This document shows, one piece after another, positions 1,967 through 41,482 of a DNA stretch of 64,000 nucleotides; within the stretch, counting starts at the first letter, position 1, and each line of letters begins with the position of its first letter. The translations under genes were made by a program, and so were the position numbers. Source of the DNA: an uncultured delta proteobacterium. Lineage in GTDB: Bacteria; Myxococcota_A; Polyangia; Fen-1088. Below the pieces are notes generated by a model. It ran no database searches and was not told where the DNA came from. It saw only the letters and a list, made by a program, of their open reading frames with translations. The stretch lies in contig CAWGPW010000025.1 in the NCBI GenBank assembly GCA_963824555.1, positions 30,469-94,468 of the forward strand, in the 5' to 3' direction.

Positions 1967-4213
1967 TGTTTGCACCACAGCCACACGGTGCCATCGTCGT
2001 ACGCCACGGCAAGGCGACTGCCATCACCCGCGAAACGCATGCGTACGAGACCCTGGCCGTGGGCGGGAAGGCTGGGAAGAGCGGTCAGCTCCGGCGTGCT
2101 CCACAGGCGCATGACCCCGTCACTGCCGCCCGCGACGAGCACGGTTCCGTCGGGCGAGAACGCGACGGTACGGCTCGAGAACGACGCCGGGCCTTGAAAC
2201 AGATCGCGGCGGGCCGTCGCGCCCGTGGATTGCCAGACCGTCACGCGCTCGTCCCCAACGCTTGCCACCAGCTGGTTGTCCGGCGAAATCGACACGTCGA
2301 CGACAGCAGGCGAATGGGCTTCCGTGATTCGCCGGGTGGTACTCCAATCCGCGGTGCTCAAGATGTCGAGCTCGCGCCCGTCGGAGCCCGCGGCGAGCAA
2401 GGTCCCGTCGCGCGAGAACGCCACGCTGTCGACGTTGCCAGCGATGCCCATTCCGGTGACCATGCTGCCCGAAGGAACCTGGTAGACTTCGTCGGCACCT
2501 TGGTCGGCGCCGGCGGCCAACAACGTGCCGTCGGGCGAGAAGGACACCCTGTTCGCGCGAATGAGCGCTGTCGTGATTGGCTGGGTGACGGTCCACGTCG
2601 CGGTCGACCACAGGTTGACCTGGCCGCTCTCCTCCGCCGTCGCAAGCCATCCGCCGCTTGCCGAAAGCGCGACATCGTTGACGGTGCGGGCGGACTGGCC
2701 CCAGTCGGGCGCCTGCGTGATGACCGCATCGGGGACGGAACGTACGACCATGCCGAAGTCGCCGCCAATGACCAAATGACTCCCGTCGGGCAGGAAGCCG
2801 ACCGTGCGCGCGAACGGCCCTTGCTGAACCGGATCGCGTAGCGAGGCCCCGGTCGAATCCGTGAGCCACAGCGCCCACGTGCTGGCCGTGAACAGCTGGC
2901 GCCCGTCGGGCGACGCGGCCACCAGGTGCGGACCTCCGATCGGGGCGAGCAGAAGCTTCGAGGGCGAGCCGTCGACCGGGAACGAGGTCACGGCTTCGTC
3001 GATGGTGCTCACGTAAAGGTGGGTACCGTCCGGTGCATAGGAGATGCTCTTGATTCCATAAGGCGCTTTGAGCTGGCGAACGAGACTGGCGTCGGAGCCA
3101 CGCCAAAGTCGCAGATTGCCGTCGGCATCGCCCACCGCGACCTGGGTTCCATCGGCGGAGACCGCGAGGGTGTTCATCCAGGTCCCGCCCTGCAGGGGGA
3201 TTGCAATCGCCGACAGAATCGGCTCCGGACCAGACGCGGACGCTCCCGTCCTTGCTGGCGGTGAAGACGCTGGCACCCCCGGCGGCGAAGCCGATGCCGC
3301 GCACTTCGTCGACATGATCCACCGTGGTCGCGACGAGCGTCCCGGGCCCGCTCTGCCACAAGAAAACCTCGCCATCGGCAGCACCCGCCGCAATGCGCGT
3401 TCCGTCGGGCGACAGCGCGACGGCGAGCAGCTCACGTCCGTGCGCCGGCAGCGAAGCGAGCAGCGTCCCGTCGGCGATGCGCCACAGCTTCACCGTCCGG
3501 TCGTCGCTGGCTGTCACCAGCGTCGCACCGTCAGCAGAGACAGCGACGGCGTTGACGCCTCCTGCGTGCCCGATGAACGAACGCACCTCGTGCCCGTCGC
3601 TGGGATCAATCAACTTTGCCACCGCGCCGGCAAGACCTGCGGCGACGGCACTGCTATCGGGCAAGTAGGCGATGCTGCGAATTCCGGCCAGGCCCATCGC
3701 CGCGCATGGGGCAAAGGTGGTGCTCGTGCCGCCGTCCACGGCGCCCGGGCCATCCAAGCTTGTGGCACCGAGATCCCCACCTCCGCTTTCGCTGCTTGCA
3801 CCATCGAGGCCCGCCGTCGGTGCGTCGACAGCCCCGTTACCGGCTTCAATGCCGCCATCGGACGTTGTCGCGCCACCACTGCCCTTCGCGCCGGAGTCTG
3901 CGAGCACGAGAGGGCCGTCCCCCACCGCATCGCCGCGATCCGGTGCAGCATCCACACCCAGCGCCCCACCCGTGCCGCTCTTCCCGGCGTCGACCTTCGC
4001 GGTTCCGCCCGTGCCGGTGTCTCCTCCGTCGAGATGCTGTCCTCCGCTGCCGCTGGTCGTGCCACCCGCGCCACCCGCGCCCCCGTGCGACCCGCCCGAC
4101 GACGATCCACAACCCACGAGGCCCAGCGCGACGAACATCAACACCCCCGGGTGTCCGGATTTTACTAATGCCCTCGCGATGGTCGCATTCACTGCCAATG
4201 TTCCTGCTCGCAT
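1963..4213 (-). CDS. WD40-repeat lipoprotein with Gly/Ser-rich linker; one frameshift near 3218
   Basis: N-part in ORF 2120..4291 (lipobox LVGC, GGTGG linker, repeats such as GHAGGVNAVAVSADGATLVTASDDRTVKLW). C-part in ORF 1963..3435 continues the WD40 repeats. Frames switch at VRVWSGAD / ILSAIAIP. Confidence 0.85.
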
Positions 4214-8668: not shown

Positions 8669-8789
8669 GCGGCGAGCCGCAGCAGGCCGGCCACGACCTT
8701 CCCTCCCCGTGGAGCACACAAGATCTGGCTTTCAGATGGCAATCGCATCAAACTGGCGGGAGCGGCCTGTGGTCGCCCAGGCAGCATCG

Positions 8790-11048
8790 ATGGCCACCGT
8801 CAACCGAGATCACGCCAAGCTCATCTGTGACATTGGGGAGCTGTCCGCCATCATCACCGACGCGTCCGATCTCGATGCCATGTTGCAGAAGATCGTCGAC
8901 ACCGCGGCCGGCCACATGGAGGCCGACGTATGCTCGGTGTACCTTTTCGACGAGGCCGGCAAAGAGCTGGTGCTGCGGGCCACGCGCGGCCTTCTGCCGA
9001 GCTCGGTAGGCACCGTACGCCTGCGTCCCGGAGAGGGACTCACCGGCCTGGCCTTCTCGGAGCGCCGCCCGATCTGCGAGGCCGATGCACCCTCGCACCC
9101 CGCCTACCGGTTCTTTCCCGGCATCGGAGAGGAGAGCTACCGCTCGTTCGTCGCGGTGCCCATCCTACGTGGCCGCCGTCCGGTGGGCGCCATGACCCTG
9201 CAAAGCAAGCAGCCCGGCCACTTCTCGGCCGAGGACGTCCAGGTCTTTCGCGCCATCACCATGCAGCTTGCCACGACCATCGAGATGGCCCGGCTGCTCC
9301 TCACCCTGGAATCCCCCGGCGCATCGATTACGCCGACGTCAGGCCCTTCCGAATTACGCCTCGTGCATGGCCAGGTTGGTGCCGAGGGCCTCGCCGTGGG
9401 CGAGGTCGTGATCATTCGGCAGCCATCGCTGGCCGAGATCCGCGCCCTCATGGGCGGTGTGGCGCTGGAGCTACCCGATTTCCGTCGGGCCGTGGTCGCC
9501 ACCGAGCAGCAGCTGGAGCACCTCGAGAAGCTGGCGGGGGAGCGACTGTCCGACGTGACCGCCGTGATCTTCTCGGCGCAGCTCATGATGTTGCGCGATC
9601 AAAGCTGGCTGGGCGCGATGGAGGAACAAATCGCCGCTGGAACGCCTCCCGCCGAAGCCGTGTACCGCGTGCTCCTCAATTACGTCGAGCTCTTCGACCG
9701 CATGGACAACGCGTATATGCGTGAAAAGCGCTACGACGTGTTGGACGTGGGCCGCCGGCTACTCGGCAACCTGTCTGGTCATCGCGCTGCCGAATCTAGC
9801 ATCGAAGGACGCATCGCCATTGCCGCCGAGCTTCTGCCCTCCGATGTGCTCAAGCTGGGATTGGAGAAAGTCGGCGGCATCGTGCTCCTGTCCGGCGGTG
9901 TGACCTCGCACGTCGCAGTGCTGGCGCGCTCTCTCGATCTGCCGCTGATCTTCGTCGACGAACCACGCCTGCTGGAGATCCCCGATGGCACGCGCGTGGT
10001 CCTCGACGCCCGTCAGGGCAACCTGTTCGTGGCGCCCGACGAGGAGGTCGAGCAGCACTTTCGCGAGCAGGAGGACTCCCGTCGCTCGGCCCCGCAGTCG
10101 GCCGAGGGTATGCGCGAGGAGACCCGCACCGCCGACGGTACCCGTGTGCGCCTCCTGGCCAACATCAATCTACTGGCGGACGTCGAGGTCGCGCGCTCGT
10201 ACAAAGCCGAGGGCATCGGACTCTATCGCACCGAATTTCCCTTCATGATCCGCAACGACCTCCCCAGCGAGGAAGAACAGTTGCGTATCTACCGCCGGCT
10301 GGTCGAGGGCATGCCCGGTCGCGAGATCACCTTCCGCACCCTCGACGTGGGCGGCGACAAGGTGCTCTCGTACTTCGACTACGCCGCCGAGGCCAACCCC
10401 TTCCTCGGTCTGCGCTCGATTCGCTTCTCGCTGCGCCACCGCGATGTCTTCCTGCAACAGGTGCGCGCCATCCTGCGCGCTGCCCATGACATCCATGTGC
10501 GCATCATGTTTCCCATGATCTCTTCGCCGGACGAGCTGGCCGCTGCAGCCGATGCGGTCGACGAGTGCCGGGCCTCCCTGCGGCAGGAGGGCACGCCCGC
10601 CTGCGAGCACGTGGAGCTGGGCATGATGCTGGAGGTCCCATCGGTGCTCGAAATGATGGACGAGCTCTCTCGACGGGCTGATTTCTTCTCCATCGGTACC
10701 AACGATTTCGTCCAGTACATGCTGGCCGTGGATCGCACCAACGTCAACGTCGCCGATCTATACATCCCACACCACCCCGCCGTTCTGCGCGGCCTCCATC
10801 GCGCCATCACGGCAGCCCTGCGCCACGGCCGCGACGTCTCGGTATGCGGCGACATGGCGCACGACCCGCGCTTCGTGCGCTTCCTGCTGGGCATCGGCGT
10901 GCGCAAGTTCAGCATGAGCGCGCGCTATCTGCCGCGCGTCCAGGAGGCCATCTTCGCCACCGTCCTCGAGGAGGCACAAGCCTTCGCCAAGCGTCTCCTC
11001 GCCGAGAGCTCGGTTTCCGGCGCCACCCGGGTTCTCGAAGCCGGGTGA
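8790..11048 (+). CDS. ptsP: Phosphoenolpyruvate-protein phosphotransferase with N-terminal GAF domain (EI-Ntr type)
   Basis: GAF domain, phospho-His motif GGVTSHVAVLAR, EGIGLYRTEF, RTLDVGGDK, FSIGTNDFVQY, VCGDMA. Start may be 8709, 8736 or 8790. Confidence 0.95.
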   Translation: MATVNRDHAKLICDIGELSAIITDASDLDAMLQKIVDTAAGHMEADVCSVYLFDEAGKELVLRATRGLLPSSVGTVRLRPGEGLTGLAFSERRPICEADAPSHPAYRFFPGIGEESYRSFVAVPILRGRRPVGAMTLQSKQPGHFSAEDVQVFRAITMQLATTIEMARLLLTLESPGASITPTSGPSELRLVHGQVGAEGLAVGEVVIIRQPSLAEIRALMGGVALELPDFRRAVVATEQQLEHLEKLAGERLSDVTAVIFSAQLMMLRDQSWLGAMEEQIAAGTPPAEAVYRVLLNYVELFDRMDNAYMREKRYDVLDVGRRLLGNLSGHRAAESSIEGRIAIAAELLPSDVLKLGLEKVGGIVLLSGGVTSHVAVLARSLDLPLIFVDEPRLLEIPDGTRVVLDARQGNLFVAPDEEVEQHFREQEDSRRSAPQSAEGMREETRTADGTRVRLLANINLLADVEVARSYKAEGIGLYRTEFPFMIRNDLPSEEEQLRIYRRLVEGMPGREITFRTLDVGGDKVLSYFDYAAEANPFLGLRSIRFSLRHRDVFLQQVRAILRAAHDIHVRIMFPMISSPDELAAAADAVDECRASLRQEGTPACEHVELGMMLEVPSVLEMMDELSRRADFFSIGTNDFVQYMLAVDRTNVNVADLYIPHHPAVLRGLHRAITAALRHGRDVSVCGDMAHDPRFVRFLLGIGVRKFSMSARYLPRVQEAIFATVLEEAQAFAKRLLAESSVSGATRVLEAG

Positions 11049-11084: not shown

Positions 11085-12407
11085 CTACTCGGACGGATCG
11101 ACGACTCGCCCCTGGAATAGGATCGCGCCGGACGGATCGTGGCGGATGAAGAACAAGAACGGCCGATCCACGACAAGAAGATTGGTTGGGACAATCACCG
11201 CCGTGATACCCACGGTCACGCCGGTCGCGGCCGCGGCGGTCGTCCCGCTTTCATCGACCGCAATGACCGCCTTGTGAACGACGCCCCCAACCGACAGATC
11301 GCGCACGCCGTCCATCCCCGAGAAATCAGCCAGGGACGAGTCGAAGGCATCGATCATCCCCAGTGCCGAGAGCGCGTCATTCAGAAGCGAGGATGTGGAG
11401 AACTTGAAGCGCGGCATCTCGACGGTGCCCATCAGCTTCTGGGAGGGTGCCAGGATGGCGGCAAGGTCGTCGACGCCCATCCCCTGCTCGAAGGCATCGA
11501 AGGTCCCGGCATCCGGGACCACCAGAATCATCGACGTGGTGCCGCCCACATAGCCGAGGGCCGCCGCGCTCCAACCTGACCCCGACCATAGCGTGGCGTT
11601 GGTCTCGTCGCTCGACATCATCGGGACGTTCACATCGCCCGTCGGGGCATGGAAGGTCCGATTCGGGCTTCCCGACTTGAACGCCTGCGACCAGTCGCCG
11701 TGGAAGTAGACCGCATTGGCGAGAACCAGCCTGGTGGAAGACGTGATCGTGCCCTGGCCGAAGAGCTCCGGAATCATTTGCTCGGTCTGGTCTGACACCC
11801 AGTTGTTGATGTCCGCACGCGCAGTCTCGGGGGAGCTGGCGAAGCTCTCGACAAAGAGGCCAGCACCGTAATTTTCGGCCAAGAGGTCGAGATACGACGG
11901 CAGGAAGGAAAACCCCACCTGGACCCACATCGAGCTCGCGATCTGGAGCTGGAATCCGTTTGCCGTGGCGCTCGATGGCTGCGCCATCAGCGCGAGGTCC
12001 AGCGCGTTGAAGGCTGGATGGAGGCGCTCGGACGGCAGGGTGAAGTGCAATGCGGCAGCCATCTGCATCGCCGTACTGTTCGCGGCGCCCGCGTAGAGCA
12101 TGGCCAGCGCGAGCGAGATGCTGGTCTGGGAAAAGACGAAGTTGCCCGAATTCTGCCCGCGCAATTGGCCGTACAGGCCCACGCCAAACGCGAGGTTGTC
12201 CGCGGCCAATTGAGTGGCGTCGGAGGAAGCGACAATCGGACTCAAGTTCCGGGCTGTCCCGGAACGCATCTCGTTCGGTGGGGCGGCGCCGCCGTCCGCG
12301 TCGGCGGAACCCACCGCGGAAGCATCCGCCGACGAAATCGCGTTGCTCCCCCCACACGCGGCCAACATCAACCCTGCGAACACCGCAACGATAGAGCCCT
12401 TGGTCAT
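11085..12407 (-). CDS. Serpin (serine protease inhibitor), lipoprotein
   Basis: Lipobox LAAC; NFVFSQTSISLALAML, LVLANAVYFHGDW, hinge ESGTTAAAAT and signature VDRPFLFFIRHDPSGAILFQGRV. Confidence 0.95.
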   Translation of the reverse strand: MTKGSIVAVFAGLMLAACGGSNAISSADASAVGSADADGGAAPPNEMRSGTARNLSPIVASSDATQLAADNLAFGVGLYGQLRGQNSGNFVFSQTSISLALAMLYAGAANSTAMQMAAALHFTLPSERLHPAFNALDLALMAQPSSATANGFQLQIASSMWVQVGFSFLPSYLDLLAENYGAGLFVESFASSPETARADINNWVSDQTEQMIPELFGQGTITSSTRLVLANAVYFHGDWSQAFKSGSPNRTFHAPTGDVNVPMMSSDETNATLWSGSGWSAAALGYVGGTTSMILVVPDAGTFDAFEQGMGVDDLAAILAPSQKLMGTVEMPRFKFSTSSLLNDALSALGMIDAFDSSLADFSGMDGVRDLSVGGVVHKAVIAVDESGTTAAAATGVTVGITAVIVPTNLLVVDRPFLFFIRHDPSGAILFQGRVVDPSE

Positions 12408-12728
12408 GGCAGGATTTTCAAGCAATCCTGGGGCCAGCGCAACAAGCGACCGGAACCACGAGATTTCGATATCTTTCCCGAGCCTTCCCTCGAATTTCTG
12501 AGGACCTCCCCACCCAAACCACCGGGCCTGCGCAACGTCCGAACATGGTTCCGAACAGCAGCATCTGCTTGCCAGGCCTGGTCAATATCGCGCACAATAC
12601 GGCGAGCGCTCCCGCACAGGACTGGCGCAAAAGCCCGACGAAATCAAGCTGTTGCCGGTTTCTATCGATACGTGCATCGAGAAACGGCCTCCAGTCGCCG
12701 ACGGGAAGGCCACTGCTAGAGATCCTTC

Positions 12729-14312
12729 ATGAGCAAGAGCGGCGAACACAACACACCCATCGGAACGCCGATGGTCATCGCTCCGGGAAAAATCTTCCTG
12801 GTCGGCGAATACGCGGTGCTCGACGAAGGCTGCGCCGTCTTGGCCGCCATCACCAGGCACGCCAAGGCCCAATTCATCCCGCGCATGGACTCCATGCCCC
12901 CAATGGTCTCGGAGCTGGTCAGACGCGCCAAGTCCGAGCTTGGCGAAGCCGCCGCTGCGCTACCGCCCGGCGCGGTCTTGGTGAATGCGGACGACTTCCA
13001 TTCTGGCCACGCTGCCGGCGGTTTGGGATCCAGCGCCGCCATCGCAGTGGCGACGGTAGGCGCGGTGTTCGAGTCGCTTGGACTGGCCATCGAAGAACGC
13101 AAACAGCAGATCTTCGCCATCGCCGATGCCGGGCGTAGAACTGCCCAGGGCGACGTGGGTTCGGGCGCGGACACTGCGGTCGCCACCCACGGAGGTCTGA
13201 TTCAAGTCACCCGCCACAAGGACACGCTTCCCCGCATCGACTGTTTGGCAGCTCCCGCGGGCCTGCACCTGGTGTTGTTCACCGCGGGCCCCTCGATCTC
13301 GACACGTCAAATGACGGCCGGCCTGCGCGCATACGCGCAACACGAATCGACCGCCTTCGAATACGCGATGACGAGTCTGCGCGAGATCGCCCATCGCTTC
13401 GTCGCGGAAGTGACCGCAGGACACGCCACGGGCGCGGTGGTCGCCGCCGGCAAGTATGGCGAGGAGCTGGCCAGGCTGTCGCTGGCCGCGTCGGTTCCCA
13501 TCGTGACGGCCGCCTTCGAACGAGCCGCCGACCTGGCCCGCGAGCTCGGGGGTATCGCCAAGCCGATCGGCGCAGGCGGCGGAGAAATCGGCCTTGCCAT
13601 GTTCGCCACACCCGAGGCCGCCCAGTGGTTCAAGAAGGCATGCGCCGATCCGCTCGTGCCGCTTGAAGGCGATCTGGAACCCTTCGGCGTACGCTGTCGC
13701 AACCCCGAAAAGACCTCGGAAGACGCCATCGATGTCAGGGAAGCCGTGGTCGTGGAAGCCACGGTCGAGGCGTCGCCCGAGCCTACCGTCTTCGAGGTTG
13801 CACCCACGCACGCACTCGCTCGCATCGTCGTGACATCGGAAGAGCTGGAAACGGTGCCAGAGCGGAGGGCGGATGATCTCGTAACGGTGCGCATCGGCAA
13901 ACGACGTGGCCGCCGCTCCCGACGGCGCATCATTCCGGCCGTCGCCATCGTTCTTGCGGTGGCGGTGACGTGGTATGCGTTTCCCAGAACCAACGGGGTG
14001 CATGGCTACGGCACGCCGAATGCGTCCAGCACGGGTGAAGGTCCGAATCCGTTCATCGCGATGCCCGAAAAGGGAGCCCCTCCACCGTCGGAAGGCACGG
14101 CGCCCGAGGAAGCAGCGCCGGCGGATGCGAAACAGGCAACTGCCGCGCCGACAGAGCCAATGCTCATCCCCCCGGCACACGAACACGGCCCAAGGTTCGA
14201 GTCGACTCGACACCCGCACGGTGCCACGGCTCGCGAACCAACCGCCGCGTCCAGGCATCGCTCCCCTAAGCAAGTACCCCGCGCTGGCAACCTGTCTGCG
14301 GACGACTTCTAG
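12729..14312 (+). CDS. GHMP (mevalonate/phosphomevalonate kinase-like) domain fused to a TM helix and Pro/Ala-rich C-terminal tail
   Basis: APGKIFLVGEYAVL, GLGSSAA, GSGAD and GAGGG motifs; then RRGRRSRRR-IIPAVAIVLAVAVTWYAF and a low-complexity tail ending GNLSADDF. Confidence 0.8.
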   Translation: MSKSGEHNTPIGTPMVIAPGKIFLVGEYAVLDEGCAVLAAITRHAKAQFIPRMDSMPPMVSELVRRAKSELGEAAAALPPGAVLVNADDFHSGHAAGGLGSSAAIAVATVGAVFESLGLAIEERKQQIFAIADAGRRTAQGDVGSGADTAVATHGGLIQVTRHKDTLPRIDCLAAPAGLHLVLFTAGPSISTRQMTAGLRAYAQHESTAFEYAMTSLREIAHRFVAEVTAGHATGAVVAAGKYGEELARLSLAASVPIVTAAFERAADLARELGGIAKPIGAGGGEIGLAMFATPEAAQWFKKACADPLVPLEGDLEPFGVRCRNPEKTSEDAIDVREAVVVEATVEASPEPTVFEVAPTHALARIVVTSEELETVPERRADDLVTVRIGKRRGRRSRRRIIPAVAIVLAVAVTWYAFPRTNGVHGYGTPNASSTGEGPNPFIAMPEKGAPPPSEGTAPEEAAPADAKQATAAPTEPMLIPPAHEHGPRFESTRHPHGATAREPTAASRHRSPKQVPRAGNLSADDF

Positions 14313-14342: not shown

Positions 14343-14813
14343 TCAGTCCGAACGGCTCGAGCTTTCCCGGATCGACTCCACCAGGACTTCCAGCAGTCGC
14401 TCGTCGGAAACCGGCTGGAGCAGATAGCGATGGGCGCCGCATTCCACGGCTGCTCGCGCGGTGGCGAAGGCAATGCCACTCGATAGCAGCACCACGGGAA
14501 GCTCCGCCCGGTGTTCGTGAAGGCTCTTCAGCGTCCGATCCTCACAATCGAGCAGCGGGTCCGCGTCGCCGATGACGACATCGAACTGCTTCTCCCTCGC
14601 AAGGCGGACCGCGCCCTCGCCCCGCGCGACTCGCACGACCGCGTACCCGTAGGACTCGAGGACACGCTGGTATCGGTGCGCCAACTCGGCGTCGTCGTCC
14701 ACAATCAAGACCGACGACCGCGGTCGCGCGGCTGCGCACTCGGCGCGCGCGGCATCGTGACCTGTGAAAGTTTTGTCCGTCGTCTCCGTGTTGCCCACTT
14801 GGTCCTTGGCCAC
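14343..14813 (-). CDS. Stand-alone response regulator receiver domain (atypical)
   Basis: VLIVDDD, FDVVIGD, VVLLSS; YLLQP where the canonical motif is K-P. Confidence 0.85.
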
Positions 14814-14948
14814 GATCTGGACATCGGCCTACGTCGAAGGTACTTGAGCCCTTTTGGGGCGTTCCCGACAAATGCCGTTTCTCTGTGCGCGTTCGGACGA
14901 CATGGAGCCGATTTCCGCATACTGGTACACTTGCTCCCTGGAATCAGG

Positions 14949-15470
14949 ATGGGCAGAGCCGCGGGAATAGACGTCGTCAAAGCCGACATCACCACCCTCG
15001 ATGTCGACGCCATCGTCAACGCCGCCAATGAATCGCTCTTGGGCGGGGGCGGGGTCGACGGCGCCATCCATCGCGCTGCGGGACCGGGGCTGCTGGCGGA
15101 ATGCCGAACGCTGGGCGGATGCGAAACCGGCAGCGCGAAGCTCACGCGTGGATACAAACTGCCCGCACGCTTCGTGATTCACGCCGTGGGCCCGGTATGG
15201 AACGGCGGCAACCGCGGCGAGGACGAGCTGCTTGCCTCCTGCTACAAGACCGCCCTTGGTCTTGCCGGGAGACAAGGCCTTGCCACCATCGCCTTCCCCG
15301 CCATCAGCTGCGGGGTGTACCGTTTTCCCGTCGAACGTGCGGCTCGGATCGCAGTCCAAACTATTCGCCGCACCCTACCCGCCTGTCCATCGCTTACCAA
15401 GGTTCTGCTGGTCGCGTTCAGCCCGGCCATCGAGTCGGAGCTCGCCCTGGCCCTGGGCGAATCCGTGTAG
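14949..15470 (+). CDS. Macrodomain O-acetyl-ADP-ribose deacetylase (YmdB-like)
   Basis: [53 protein letters not shown]. Confidence 0.93.
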
Positions 15471-39291: not shown

Positions 39292-41187
39292 CTATCGCTT
39301 CCGCCGCTTGCCGTGCGGCGCGGGCGGCGAAGCCCCGAGGGCGGTGAGGGCGGTGTCGATATCCTTTCTGACACACGCGTTGCCCGAGCCACCGAGAAGA
39401 CCACCGAGAAGACTACGCCGCTCGGAGCGCGCCCGGAGCAGCGGCTCGACGGCGCGCTTGTCGCCGGTCTCGCCCAGCTTCTGCACGGCCTCGCGCTTTT
39501 CCTCGCAGGTCTTGCCCTGCGCCAGGTCCAGAGCGTAGCTGTTCACCAGGTTGACCTTCTTGCCGCAGTCGAGCGTCTCGCACGCCTCGCGCGCGGCCTT
39601 GCGGAACTCGGGGCGACGATCGTCGGAAGCCAAATCAGCAAGAAGATCGATCGCGGGTTTGCCAATCTGCTGGGTCAGCATCTCCAGGGCGACGAGGCCG
39701 AGCTTCCGGTCGTTGAGCTCGCCGCGCACATTCACCAACAGGGCCGCATCGGCGCGCAGGCCAGGATCCATGCGAAGTGCTTCCTCGTAGGCTTGCAGGC
39801 CGGCGCTGGGGTTCTTGTCGGCGAATTCCAAATTGCCGAGCAGGAAGCGTACGTGTCCGTCGGTGGGATGGGCCGAGATCTGCTGCATGATGAGCACGCG
39901 CGCCTCGGTCAGAAGCCCCTTGGCCATGGTCTCTTCGATGTGCTTGATGGGCGACTCCATTTCGGCGGCAACCGGTTGGGGTTTGGGCGGCTCCAATTTG
40001 GGCGACGCCCCTTTGCGCCCGCCTCCGCCGCGCGCGAAAAGCAGCACGAGCAACAGAAGAACGACCACGCCCGGCACCGCAAAGCGCCGCGTCTTCTCGG
40101 GCAAGTGCTTGAGCACGGGGTGCGCGAGCTCGTCGATCTTGCGTTTGACGACGCCCACCCGGGCCCACACCCACCGGCCGGCCGCGATGACCACCGGACG
40201 CTTGGACCAGATCTTCGCGCCGATGGAGAACCCCATGCGCACCGACGACGCGGCAAAGCGCGCGCCCAGCTCCGCGGCGTCGGTGGACGCGTTCTCGATG
40301 GCCGTGCGAAATTCGATCGCGCTGGCGTAGCGCTTGTCGCGCTCTTTTTCCAGCACGCGCATCACCACCGCTTCGAGTACCGGCGGAATGCGCGCGTCAG
40401 GGGCGACCTCGGCGAAACGGGGCGGTGGCGCCGTGATCTGCATGCCGAGCAGCTTGACCAGGTCGGAATCCTCGAACGGCTTCCGACCGACGAGCATCTC
40501 GTACAGGATGATGCCGCACGAATAGAGGTCGGCTCGGCTGTCCGCCTCTTGCCCCGCAGCTTGTTCGGGTGACATGTAGGCGGGCGTTCCGAAGATCATC
40601 ATCCCGCGCGTCAACGGTTCGTCGCTGCCCTGGGCCTGGGTCATCTTGGCGATGCCGAAGTCCAGGATCTTCACCGACTCGGGTTTGCGCGGATCGGGAT
40701 CCCTGACCAGCATGACGTTGGCGGGCTTGAGGTCGCGGTGAACGACGCCCTCGGCGTGCGCGTGCTCGAGGGCGACCAGGATCTGTTCTGCGATATGGCA
40801 TGCGCGGGTTGGGTCCAGGCGCCCTTCGCGAGCGAGGACCTCCGCCAGTGGCTCCCCGGCCACGAATTCCATGACCAGGAACAGCTCGCCACCCGCGCCG
40901 TGGCCAAAATCGGTTACCGAAATGATATTGGGGTGGTTCAGTCGACTGGCCGACTGCGCCTCGCGCTCGAAGCGCCGCGCCGCGTCCGGCACATTGCTGA
41001 ACTCGGCGCGCAGGAGCTTGAGCGCCAACACCTTCTTCATCAAAGTGTGCTCGACGCGAAAGACCGTCCCCATGCCACCTTCGCCGATGCGGCCAAGGAT
41101 GCGATAGCGCTCGCCGATGATGGTGTCGACGAGGGGATCCCTTGCGACATTCAACATTTGCGTGGGTGCGATTTCCGAATCGGACAT
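39292..41187 (-). CDS. Hanks-type Ser/Thr protein kinase with TM helix and TPR/HEAT-like C-terminus
   Basis: IGEGGMG, LALKLL, HRDLKPAN, VKILDFG, GTPAYMSPEQ, DLYSCG; TM FAVPGVVVLLLLVLLF. Start placed at MSDSEIAP. Confidence 0.93.
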   Translation of the reverse strand: MSDSEIAPTQMLNVARDPLVDTIIGERYRILGRIGEGGMGTVFRVEHTLMKKVLALKLLRAEFSNVPDAARRFEREAQSASRLNHPNIISVTDFGHGAGGELFLVMEFVAGEPLAEVLAREGRLDPTRACHIAEQILVALEHAHAEGVVHRDLKPANVMLVRDPDPRKPESVKILDFGIAKMTQAQGSDEPLTRGMMIFGTPAYMSPEQAAGQEADSRADLYSCGIILYEMLVGRKPFEDSDLVKLLGMQITAPPPRFAEVAPDARIPPVLEAVVMRVLEKERDKRYASAIEFRTAIENASTDAAELGARFAASSVRMGFSIGAKIWSKRPVVIAAGRWVWARVGVVKRKIDELAHPVLKHLPEKTRRFAVPGVVVLLLLVLLFARGGGGRKGASPKLEPPKPQPVAAEMESPIKHIEETMAKGLLTEARVLIMQQISAHPTDGHVRFLLGNLEFADKNPSAGLQAYEEALRMDPGLRADAALLVNVRGELNDRKLGLVALEMLTQQIGKPAIDLLADLASDDRRPEFRKAAREACETLDCGKKVNLVNSYALDLAQGKTCEEKREAVQKLGETGDKRAVEPLLRARSERRSLLGGLLGGSGNACVRKDIDTALTALGASPPAPHGKRRKR

Positions 41188-41299
41188 ACCTTGGTCGGTC
41201 AGACTACCACCGCCAGCGCCGCCTGTGCGAGGTTCGCCGCTCGGAGACGAAGACACAAGGGCGACAAGGTTGTCGCGTTTTCGACCAGGCGCGCGGGTC

Positions 41300-41482
41300 C
41301 TACGTCGGGCGGCGCGCGACGTCGCGGTCATCGTTCTCGACTTGCGCGACTTCCAGGTAGCAAATGCGGAAGGTGTCGCCGCCGTAGGTGTGAAGTCCCC
41401 AGTCGACGGCGTCTTCAAGCTCGGTGAAGATCGCGGATGGAGCGTTCTGTCCATCGGGAATGATGGCGTAGCCGGAGATCAT
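41300..41482 (-). CDS. Small hypothetical protein (60 aa)
   Basis: AAGGAGG RBS 6 nt before ATG; MISGYAIIPDGQNAPSAIFTELEDAVDWGLHTYGGDTF reads like a globular protein. Confidence 0.7.
   Translation of the reverse strand: MISGYAIIPDGQNAPSAIFTELEDAVDWGLHTYGGDTFRICYLEVAQVENDDRDVARRPT

Follow-up and report, generated by a model that had tools for sequence, protein, structure and literature searches.

The gene at positions 12729 to 14312 (forward strand) of the DNA studied here, a 64,000-nucleotide stretch of contig CAWGPW010000025.1 from an uncultured delta proteobacterium of the Polyangia (assembly GCA_963824555.1; hereafter "the window"), encodes a membrane protein derived from phosphomevalonate kinase (PMK), a soluble enzyme of the mevalonate pathway. 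The gene is a spare duplicate of the lineage's own PMK and not the housekeeping enzyme; its product has lost residues that are invariant in true PMKs but is kept under purifying selection, and its C-terminal half has the same plan as that of Hanks-type Ser/Thr kinases encoded elsewhere in the genome. We conclude that envelope signalling has probably taken over a GHMP enzyme fold, because the tail is shared with Ser/Thr kinases and because its terminal motif co-occurs with one particular periplasmic protein carrying tetratricopeptide-like (TPR-like) helices. An original prediction made from the sequence had proposed a repurposed or pseudo-GHMP kinase that acts in transmembrane signalling or, alternatively, in membrane-tethered isoprenoid metabolism; the shared tail module and the TPR partner had not been foreseen.

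A duplicate of the lineage's own PMK with altered residues

The open reading frame (ORF) starts with ATG and comprises 527 codons plus stop, a call that agrees with full-length homologs, and all elements named in the original prediction are present. A GHMP-kinase fold (aa 11-327, 12759-13709) is followed by a disordered acidic linker (13710-13889; pLDDT below 50) with the conserved islands PSPEP and acidic-x-x-Thr375-Val-Pro, by an Arg-rich stop-transfer patch RIGKRRGRRSRRR (aa 388-400, 13890-13928), and by a single transmembrane (TM) helix IIPAVAIVLAVAVTWYAFP (aa 401-419) that lies at 13929-13985, slightly shifted from the predicted 13923-13980. Beyond the membrane, a disordered tail of around 48% Pro/Ala/Ser/Thr (13986-14279), basic near its end, leads to the C-terminal decapeptide RAGNLSADDF-COOH (14280-14309). 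Lysine and arginine residues number 9 in the 18 residues preceding the TM helix and 1 in the 8 residues beyond it, and this asymmetry supports the proposed N-in/C-out topology with the GHMP domain, linker and basic patch on the cytoplasmic side and the tail in the periplasm. AlphaFold2 (run with a 34-sequence alignment) modelled aa 11-327 with pLDDT above 90, a helix at aa 401-417, and disorder at aa 328-397 and 419-527. Thr375 (codon 13851-13853), which is at least 90% conserved and surrounded by acidic linker residues, is a candidate phospho-acceptor.

A Foldseek search of the PDB with the modelled domain returned the PMK-type protein of Listeria innocua (3k17) as top match, followed by mevalonate kinases (MKs) and the Streptococcus pneumoniae PMK (1k47/3gon), with probability 1.00, so that model and matches together identify a two-domain GHMP fold. 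Membership in the GHMP superfamily is also apparent from Pfam GHMP_kinases_N (PF00288; 31.5 bits, cutoff 22.3, E 2e-7) and from the phosphate-binding loop (GHMP motif II, the P-loop) GGLGSSAAIA at aa 97-106. The best NCBIfam matches were PMK (TIGR01220, 79.4 bits against a cutoff of 165.7) and MK (TIGR00549, 73 bits), both below cutoff. We dropped this shortfall as an argument against PMK identity since the genome's own operon PMK misses the TIGR01220 cutoff as well (117.7 against 165.7 bits); a score this low thus says little in this lineage, and the question has to be decided residue by residue.

Only four genes of the genome match GHMP_kinases_N: those for MK, mevalonate diphosphate decarboxylase (MDD), PMK and the PMK-like protein studied here. 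The first three lie consecutively on contig C21 next to the gene for HMG-CoA reductase (HMGR), in the order IDI2-MK-MDD-PMK-HMGR, and the PMK-like gene lies on contig C25 among unrelated genes; the window contains no second GHMP gene and none for HMG-CoA reductase, in line with the prediction. MK, MDD and IDI2 of this cluster exceed their NCBIfam equivalog cutoffs, and the 337-aa PMK between MDD and HMGR carries the canonical motifs KKIGLGSSS and KPSGAGGGD. The PMK-like protein is 56% identical to this operon PMK over 329 aa without a gap but reads AAGGLGSSA and KPIGAGGGE at these two sites, so that the motif deviations named in the original prediction are real when set against the genome's own enzyme. 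Nor is the PMK-like protein the only PMK of the genome, and the same holds more widely: across 61 related genomes the long PMK-like copy never occurred alone but always with at least one further PMK-type match, which was the operon form of around 337 aa wherever the assembly permitted reading, and genera without the long form had a single PMK copy. IspE, ThrB and GalK had no match in the whole genome (a metagenome-assembled genome that is 85% complete), and this suggests, within the limits of that completeness, that the mevalonate route is the sole isoprenoid pathway.

Searching a large protein collection yielded 591 relatives in two length classes of around 337 aa and of 490 to 580 aa. More than 50 long-form homologs match the PMK-like protein over its full length (43-78% identity, 99% coverage), and in a maximum-likelihood tree the long forms are monophyletic (SH-aLRT 100, stem 0.36) and nested within the short PMKs of Polyangia. 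The homologs that stop after the GHMP domain are therefore paralogs, namely the operon PMK, and not truncated counterparts of the long form, which is itself maintained in more than 50 independent sequences. A joint tree that includes catalytically dead copies unites all tail-bearing proteins (support 85) and splits them into subclade A, which contains the protein of the window (support 99), and a dead subclade B (support 100, stem 0.85). In subclade B the motif I lysine is replaced by Ala or Ser, and the P-loop, the SGAD motif and motif III are gone, but the tail is the same; such proteins are encoded at 8/8 of the loci examined in a sister genus (g16), and the genus of our organism has them as second copies. 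Some branches within subclade A also lack Asp148 or parts of the P-loop. The conservation of dead proteins with the same tail implies that what is conserved across the family is the fold and the tail, not catalysis. Defined by joint loss of P-loop and catalytic base, pseudokinases are therefore found in subclade B and on a few branches of subclade A, and the predicted label of a pseudo-GHMP kinase applies there but not to the protein of the window itself, which keeps its P-loop, Lys21 and Asp148.

We compared 51 long and 68 short sequences column by column and mapped the positions to the solved PMK structures 3gon, 1k47 and 3k17. Lys96, His136, Ser280 and Asp286 are invariant in 68/68 short PMKs and variable or replaced in the long clade, and the Firmicutes PMK structures carry the same Lys, Ser and Asp at the equivalents of S. 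pneumoniae Lys101, Ser291 and Asp297. Along the protein of the window, motif I APGKIFLVGEYA (12780-12815) keeps Lys21 (S. pneumoniae Lys9); Ala96 stands at the site of the invariant lysine (S. pneumoniae Lys101) directly before the intact P-loop (13014-13046); Arg136 occupies the position that is His in all true PMKs, upstream of SGAD at 145-148 with its catalytic-base Asp (13134-13172); Thr185-Ala186 (13281-13286) takes the place of a Trp-Thr pair that is invariant in short forms and Ser/Thr-Ala across the long clade; and in motif III AKPIGAGGGEIGL (13557-13595) Ser280 (S. pneumoniae Ser291) has become Ile and Asp286 (S. pneumoniae Asp297) has become Glu. The residue set of a functional PMK is thus absent. 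At position 96, long forms carry Ala, Thr, Val, Arg or Leu, and a basic residue is missing from most of them.

Other residues were newly fixed in the long clade, among them Arg136 (98%), Asp133, and Cys305 and Cys323 (96% each; codons 13641-13643 and 13695-13697), two positions that are Leu/Arg in true PMKs. A further cysteine is found at position 94 in most subclade A relatives, where the protein of the window has His94. These cysteines of the cytoplasmic domain, which are specific to the clade and not found in true PMKs, could form a redox or metal site. Lys21, Glu27, the P-loop, Ser145 and Asp148, and GAGGG are each kept in at least 90% of subclade A. The GHMP domain evolves at dN/dS 0.12-0.18 (four ortholog pairs) compared with 0.09-0.20 for the operon PMK, and this similarity argues that the domain is functional and not decaying; the corresponding values are 0.46-0.86 for the linker, 0.36-0.68 for the tail and 0-0.26 for the terminal motif. 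Loss of PMK-invariant residues and the dead sister subclade both bear out the earlier view of a repurposed GHMP kinase.

A tail module shared with Hanks kinases and its candidate partner

Although the remainder of the tail cannot be aligned, its last ten residues read RAGxLSxxDF in all but one of 51 long forms (consensus of the family, R-A-G-x-[LI]-x-x-[DE]-D-F), and the codons of this decapeptide vary synonymously. A six-frame scan of the genome for ORFs ending in the motif found the PMK-like gene and three genes for Hanks Ser/Thr kinases (0 matches for the reversed motif), all three outside the window: C6:71757-73424 (+), C15:82628-84175 (+) and C16:366680-368260 (-). Each of these kinases has a basic patch, one TM helix and around 100 to 165 Pro/Ala/Ser/Thr-rich residues that end in RAGxLxxxDF-COOH, and none has a folded sensor domain; with their HRDLKP, DFG and SPE motifs retained, they are apparently active. 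The PMK-like protein shows the same module, composed of a single N-in TM helix, a disordered periplasmic tail and the terminal decapeptide, and its TM segment ends in W-x-A-F-P as do those of many tail-sharing kinases. The Hanks kinase of the window itself (39292-41454, reverse strand; 720 aa) had been predicted, at 39.3-41.2 kb, to have the same layout; it does so in general outline, but beyond its TM helix it has a folded periplasmic domain of helical repeats (TPR/HEAT-like) and no RAGxLSxDDF tail.

Across 89 genomes of the taxonomic family we searched for a degenerate DNA pattern encoding the motif plus stop codon, including Ile variants. The pattern is restricted to certain genera (reversed control, 0-2 matches), and its classifiable carriers fall into two classes only, Hanks kinases of two subfamilies and PMK-like proteins. 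In genus g16, moreover, the dead PMK-like gene is arranged head-to-head (divergently) with a tail-bearing kinase of the C6 type at 8/8 loci. This sharing of the tail with Hanks kinases only, together with the divergent pairing, favours the signalling branch of the original prediction. A search with the tail alone (aa 478-527) against a collection of 5.8 billion proteins gave 8 candidates, none of them new, with a query that is insensitive, and a literature search for membrane-anchored GHMP kinases or for the motif strings gave no relevant match. At one locus (L068, G085:C1) an orphan 33-nt copy of motif plus stop, RAGKLSPDDF* in a frame of 10 codons (2613-2645, reverse strand), lies around 330 nt 3' of the PMK-like gene's own stop and looks like the relic of a tail duplication or exchange.

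A candidate binding partner was first seen as a conserved ORF directly 3' of the tail-bearing kinase of g16. In the genome studied here its gene lies at C6:75419-76468 (+), 2 kb downstream of the C6 kinase; a homolog is found at L044:8457-9488 (-). The protein, a hypothetical or "TPR repeat protein" in public sources, begins with a signal peptide, which is followed by four TPR-like helices that carry five Arg residues without variation (R69, R79, R82, R92 and R117) and by a carboxypeptidase-regulatory/PEGA-like β-sandwich (Foldseek E 1e-4). Beyond a disordered spacer come a two-helix membrane hairpin and a conserved Cx8Cx3F-COOH end, and the loop joining the two TM helices has an invariant Cys pair of its own. 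Signal peptide and domain layout thus put the protein in the periplasm, together with the acidic tail peptide. No PDZ protease or similar gene was found beside the tail-bearing kinases of this genome.

Across the family, 37 of 41 strong partner homologs lie at most 2.3 kb downstream of a motif-ending gene, which is a Ser/Thr kinase in every classified case; in genera g8 and g15 these upstream kinases end in RAGKISIDDF or RAGRITIDDF. Motif and partner were both present in 34 genomes and both absent from 54, with one genome that has only the motif and 0 that have only the partner. Even within a single genus (g2), the partner is present in 4/4 genomes with the motif versus 0/23 without it. The pair of kinase and partner occurs in five genera and PMK-like proteins occur in two, which indicates that the kinases had the tail module first and that the PMK duplicate acquired it later.

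Competing readings of the PMK-like protein

The reading that we favour, with moderate confidence, is that of a neofunctionalised PMK duplicate that acquired the membrane module of Hanks kinases and serves as a regulatory (pseudo)kinase in a kinase/TPR module of envelope signalling. The housekeeping PMK stayed in its operon, and the duplicate, in subclade A, kept the fold, P-loop, Lys21 and Asp148 but had its substrate and transition-state residues remodelled and was then fused to a Hanks-derived module of basic patch, TM helix, a disordered tether of around 100 residues and RAGx[LI]xx[DE]DF. The GHMP domain would face the cytoplasm from the inner membrane, and on the periplasmic side the tail peptide may dock to the TPR-like helices of the partner protein, which would serve the tail-bearing kinases in the same way; this docking would bring the PMK-like domain into one complex with them. 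In that complex it might be a regulatory subunit that binds a nucleotide or metabolite or, through Thr375, a kinase substrate, and not a pathway enzyme. A bolder version, which we consider rather unlikely, takes the TPR/β-sandwich protein as a hub that catches the terminal peptides of two to three Hanks kinases together with that of a PMK-derived sensor of isoprenoid-precursor supply that still binds ATP, an intermediate of the mevalonate pathway, or both. Such a hub would report to the kinases the supply of isoprenoid precursors, which are needed for undecaprenyl-phosphate-dependent envelope synthesis.

Several points weigh against the regulatory reading. In subclade A, strong selection acts on the P-loop, on Lys21 and Asp148 and on the Gly-rich motif III, as would be expected of an active small-molecule kinase, too. 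In the genus of our organism the PMK-like gene adjoins neither a kinase gene nor the partner gene, so that its link to both rests there on the shared tail. The association of motif and partner across the family (Fisher p 8e-24) is not corrected for phylogeny, and the helical domain of the partner resembles TPRs only weakly (Pfam TPR_2 under its cutoff, Foldseek E 0.08-0.8). Peptide-TPR binding, complex formation and a regulatory instead of a catalytic role are steps that we infer, and the weight given to the lost residues depends on catalytic roles that we take K101, S291 and D297 of S. pneumoniae PMK to have.

The strong selection on the ATP-binding elements of subclade A makes a small-molecule kinase of altered specificity a serious rival, and we regard it as a minority possibility that only the acceptor pocket was remodelled (H136R, WT to SA, S280x, D286E, new Cys pair) and that the protein still works as a membrane-bound kinase on a different metabolite with a phosphate or hydroxyl group, perhaps one that is lipid-linked or related to isoprenoids, with the tail serving for localisation only. 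ATP-binding and catalytic motifs conserved at 90% or more and a dN/dS as low as that of the true enzyme would fit this reading, and the changes cluster at substrate-proximal positions of the GHMP domain where new residues such as Arg136, Cys305 and Cys323 became fixed, a pattern more typical of a specificity shift than of decay. It is difficult to reconcile, however, with the maintenance of subclade B under the same tail without Lys21, P-loop, SGAD or motif III, with the subclade A branches that lack Asp148 or parts of the P-loop, with the missing basic residue at position 96 in most members, and with the lack of consistent metabolic-gene neighbours.

Quite improbable, in our view, is a genuine second PMK isozyme that is tethered to the membrane and channels mevalonate flux to membrane isoprenoids, even though the best family matches are PMK and MK (with a below-cutoff score that means little where the operon PMK scores below cutoff, too) and the core catalytic motifs are kept. 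The residues lost at positions 96, 136, 280 and 286 are invariant from Firmicutes to Polyangia PMKs, the operon PMK always coexists, the stem branch is long, the sister subclade is catalytically dead, and the tail is one of protein kinases and not of metabolic enzymes. Membrane-tethered isoprenoid metabolism, the second branch of the original prediction, thus becomes the less likely one, with the retained P-loop of subclade A in its favour. Finally, a lost stop codon, frameshift or assembly error that extends a 337-aa PMK into non-coding DNA has practically no probability left despite the low-complexity, disordered tail, because architecture, TM helix and terminal motif recur in more than 50 independent sequences from 20+ genomes, because the decapeptide is under constraint at the protein level with synonymous codon variation, and because unrelated kinases bear the same tail; the conservation of the long form excludes read-through.

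Genomic context and relation to known systems

The PMK-like gene is followed by a convergent gene for a single-domain (REC-only) response regulator (14343-14813, reverse strand), which recurs beside subclade A genes in several relatives but not in all. We tried and rejected an obligate operon partner among this regulator, a GAF-PtsP protein, a macro-domain protein and an NMT1_3 membrane protein, which are missing at P0023 and P0032; since these neighbours recur only in closer relatives, their proximity looks like residual synteny. No metabolic gene consistently adjoins PMK-like genes of this type among the relatives' loci.

Upstream, the GAF-domain enzyme I of the phosphotransferase system (PTS; PtsP-like, 8709-11048, forward strand) also directly precedes the PMK-like gene at the loci L036, L042 and L046. 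A second PEP-utilising enzyme I (C15:87433-89205, reverse strand) lies around 3 kb from the tail-bearing C15 kinase, and this recurrence may be a coincidence or reflect a PTS-Ntr link. Between the GAF-PtsP gene and the PMK-like gene lies a serpin gene (11085-12425, reverse strand; Pfam Serpin, E 2e-93) whose product starts with a lipoprotein-like signal; the gene is absent from the closest syntenic relative (L036, G008), where the flanking genes are around 250 bp apart, and therefore looks like a recent insertion. The macro-domain ORF (14511-15470, forward strand) overlaps the response regulator gene by around 300 nt, but nothing before residue 169 is matched by Pfam Macro, which puts the true start probably at around 14.95-15.0 kb. 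In genus g16, a 1,582-aa ORF without Pfam match (L044 13381-18126, reverse strand) is convergent to the dead PMK-like gene; it has homologs at L062, L065, L066 and L068 and is kept at 4/7 loci that extend far enough.

Among known systems, the Gram-positive/ERG8-type PMKs (MvaK2; TIGR01220; 1K47/3GON, 3K17) are closest to the GHMP domain in both sequence and structure. The PMK-like protein descends from the PMK of its lineage and retains the motif I Lys, the GLGSS P-loop, the SGxD Asp and GAGGG, but it is encoded outside the mevalonate operon in genomes that always have a true PMK as well, carries other residues at the sites of Lys101, Ser291 and Asp297, of His136 and of the Trp-Thr pair 185/186, and has around 200 extra residues of linker, TM helix and periplasmic tail. 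Non-catalytic signalling proteins of the GHMP fold are known from eukaryotes, where both Caenorhabditis elegans XOL-1 and yeast Gal3p are soluble; Gal3p is a galactokinase paralog that senses galactose and ATP and binds Gal80. They, too, are duplicated metabolic GHMP kinases turned to signalling, and the ATP and ligand binding of Gal3p might have its match in the P-loop kept here, but they derive from other parent enzymes and have neither anchor nor tail, and the PMK-like protein would be a sensor only by our inference.

The back half of the protein follows the plan of PknB-like single-pass Hanks kinases, as in the C6, C15 and C16 kinases, with the same N-in/C-out orientation. Its cytoplasmic domain is of the GHMP and not of the protein-kinase fold, and its outer part is a tether with a terminal peptide in place of a PASTA or TPR sensor. 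For the proposed mode of peptide recognition, the closest likeness is to TPR clamps that bind a C-terminus with a free carboxylate (Hop/STI1, SGT, PP5 and Sec72 on EEVD-COOH; PEX5 on SKL-COOH): the tail peptide has such an acidic end, the weak Foldseek matches of the partner's helical domain mostly belong to this class, and the five invariant Arg residues would suit it. These clamps are eukaryotic and cytosolic, however, and with non-significant matches, binding in the periplasm is a hypothesis.

GHMP kinases are textbook soluble metabolic enzymes, and what we describe is a conserved, selected, membrane-anchored derivative that shares a module with protein kinases. It would give a clear example from bacteria of a metabolic enzyme whose fold was turned to receptor-type signalling and, if the hub and sensor reading were true, a membrane-bound bacterial counterpart of the Gal3p type of enzyme turned sensor. 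Public automatic annotation labels these PMK-like genes as "mevalonate kinase" or "phosphomevalonate kinase", which would inflate pathway reconstructions. For bacterial Hanks kinases that have no folded sensor domain, the terminal motif and its partner provide a peptide-receptor hypothesis of how periplasmic input may reach them.

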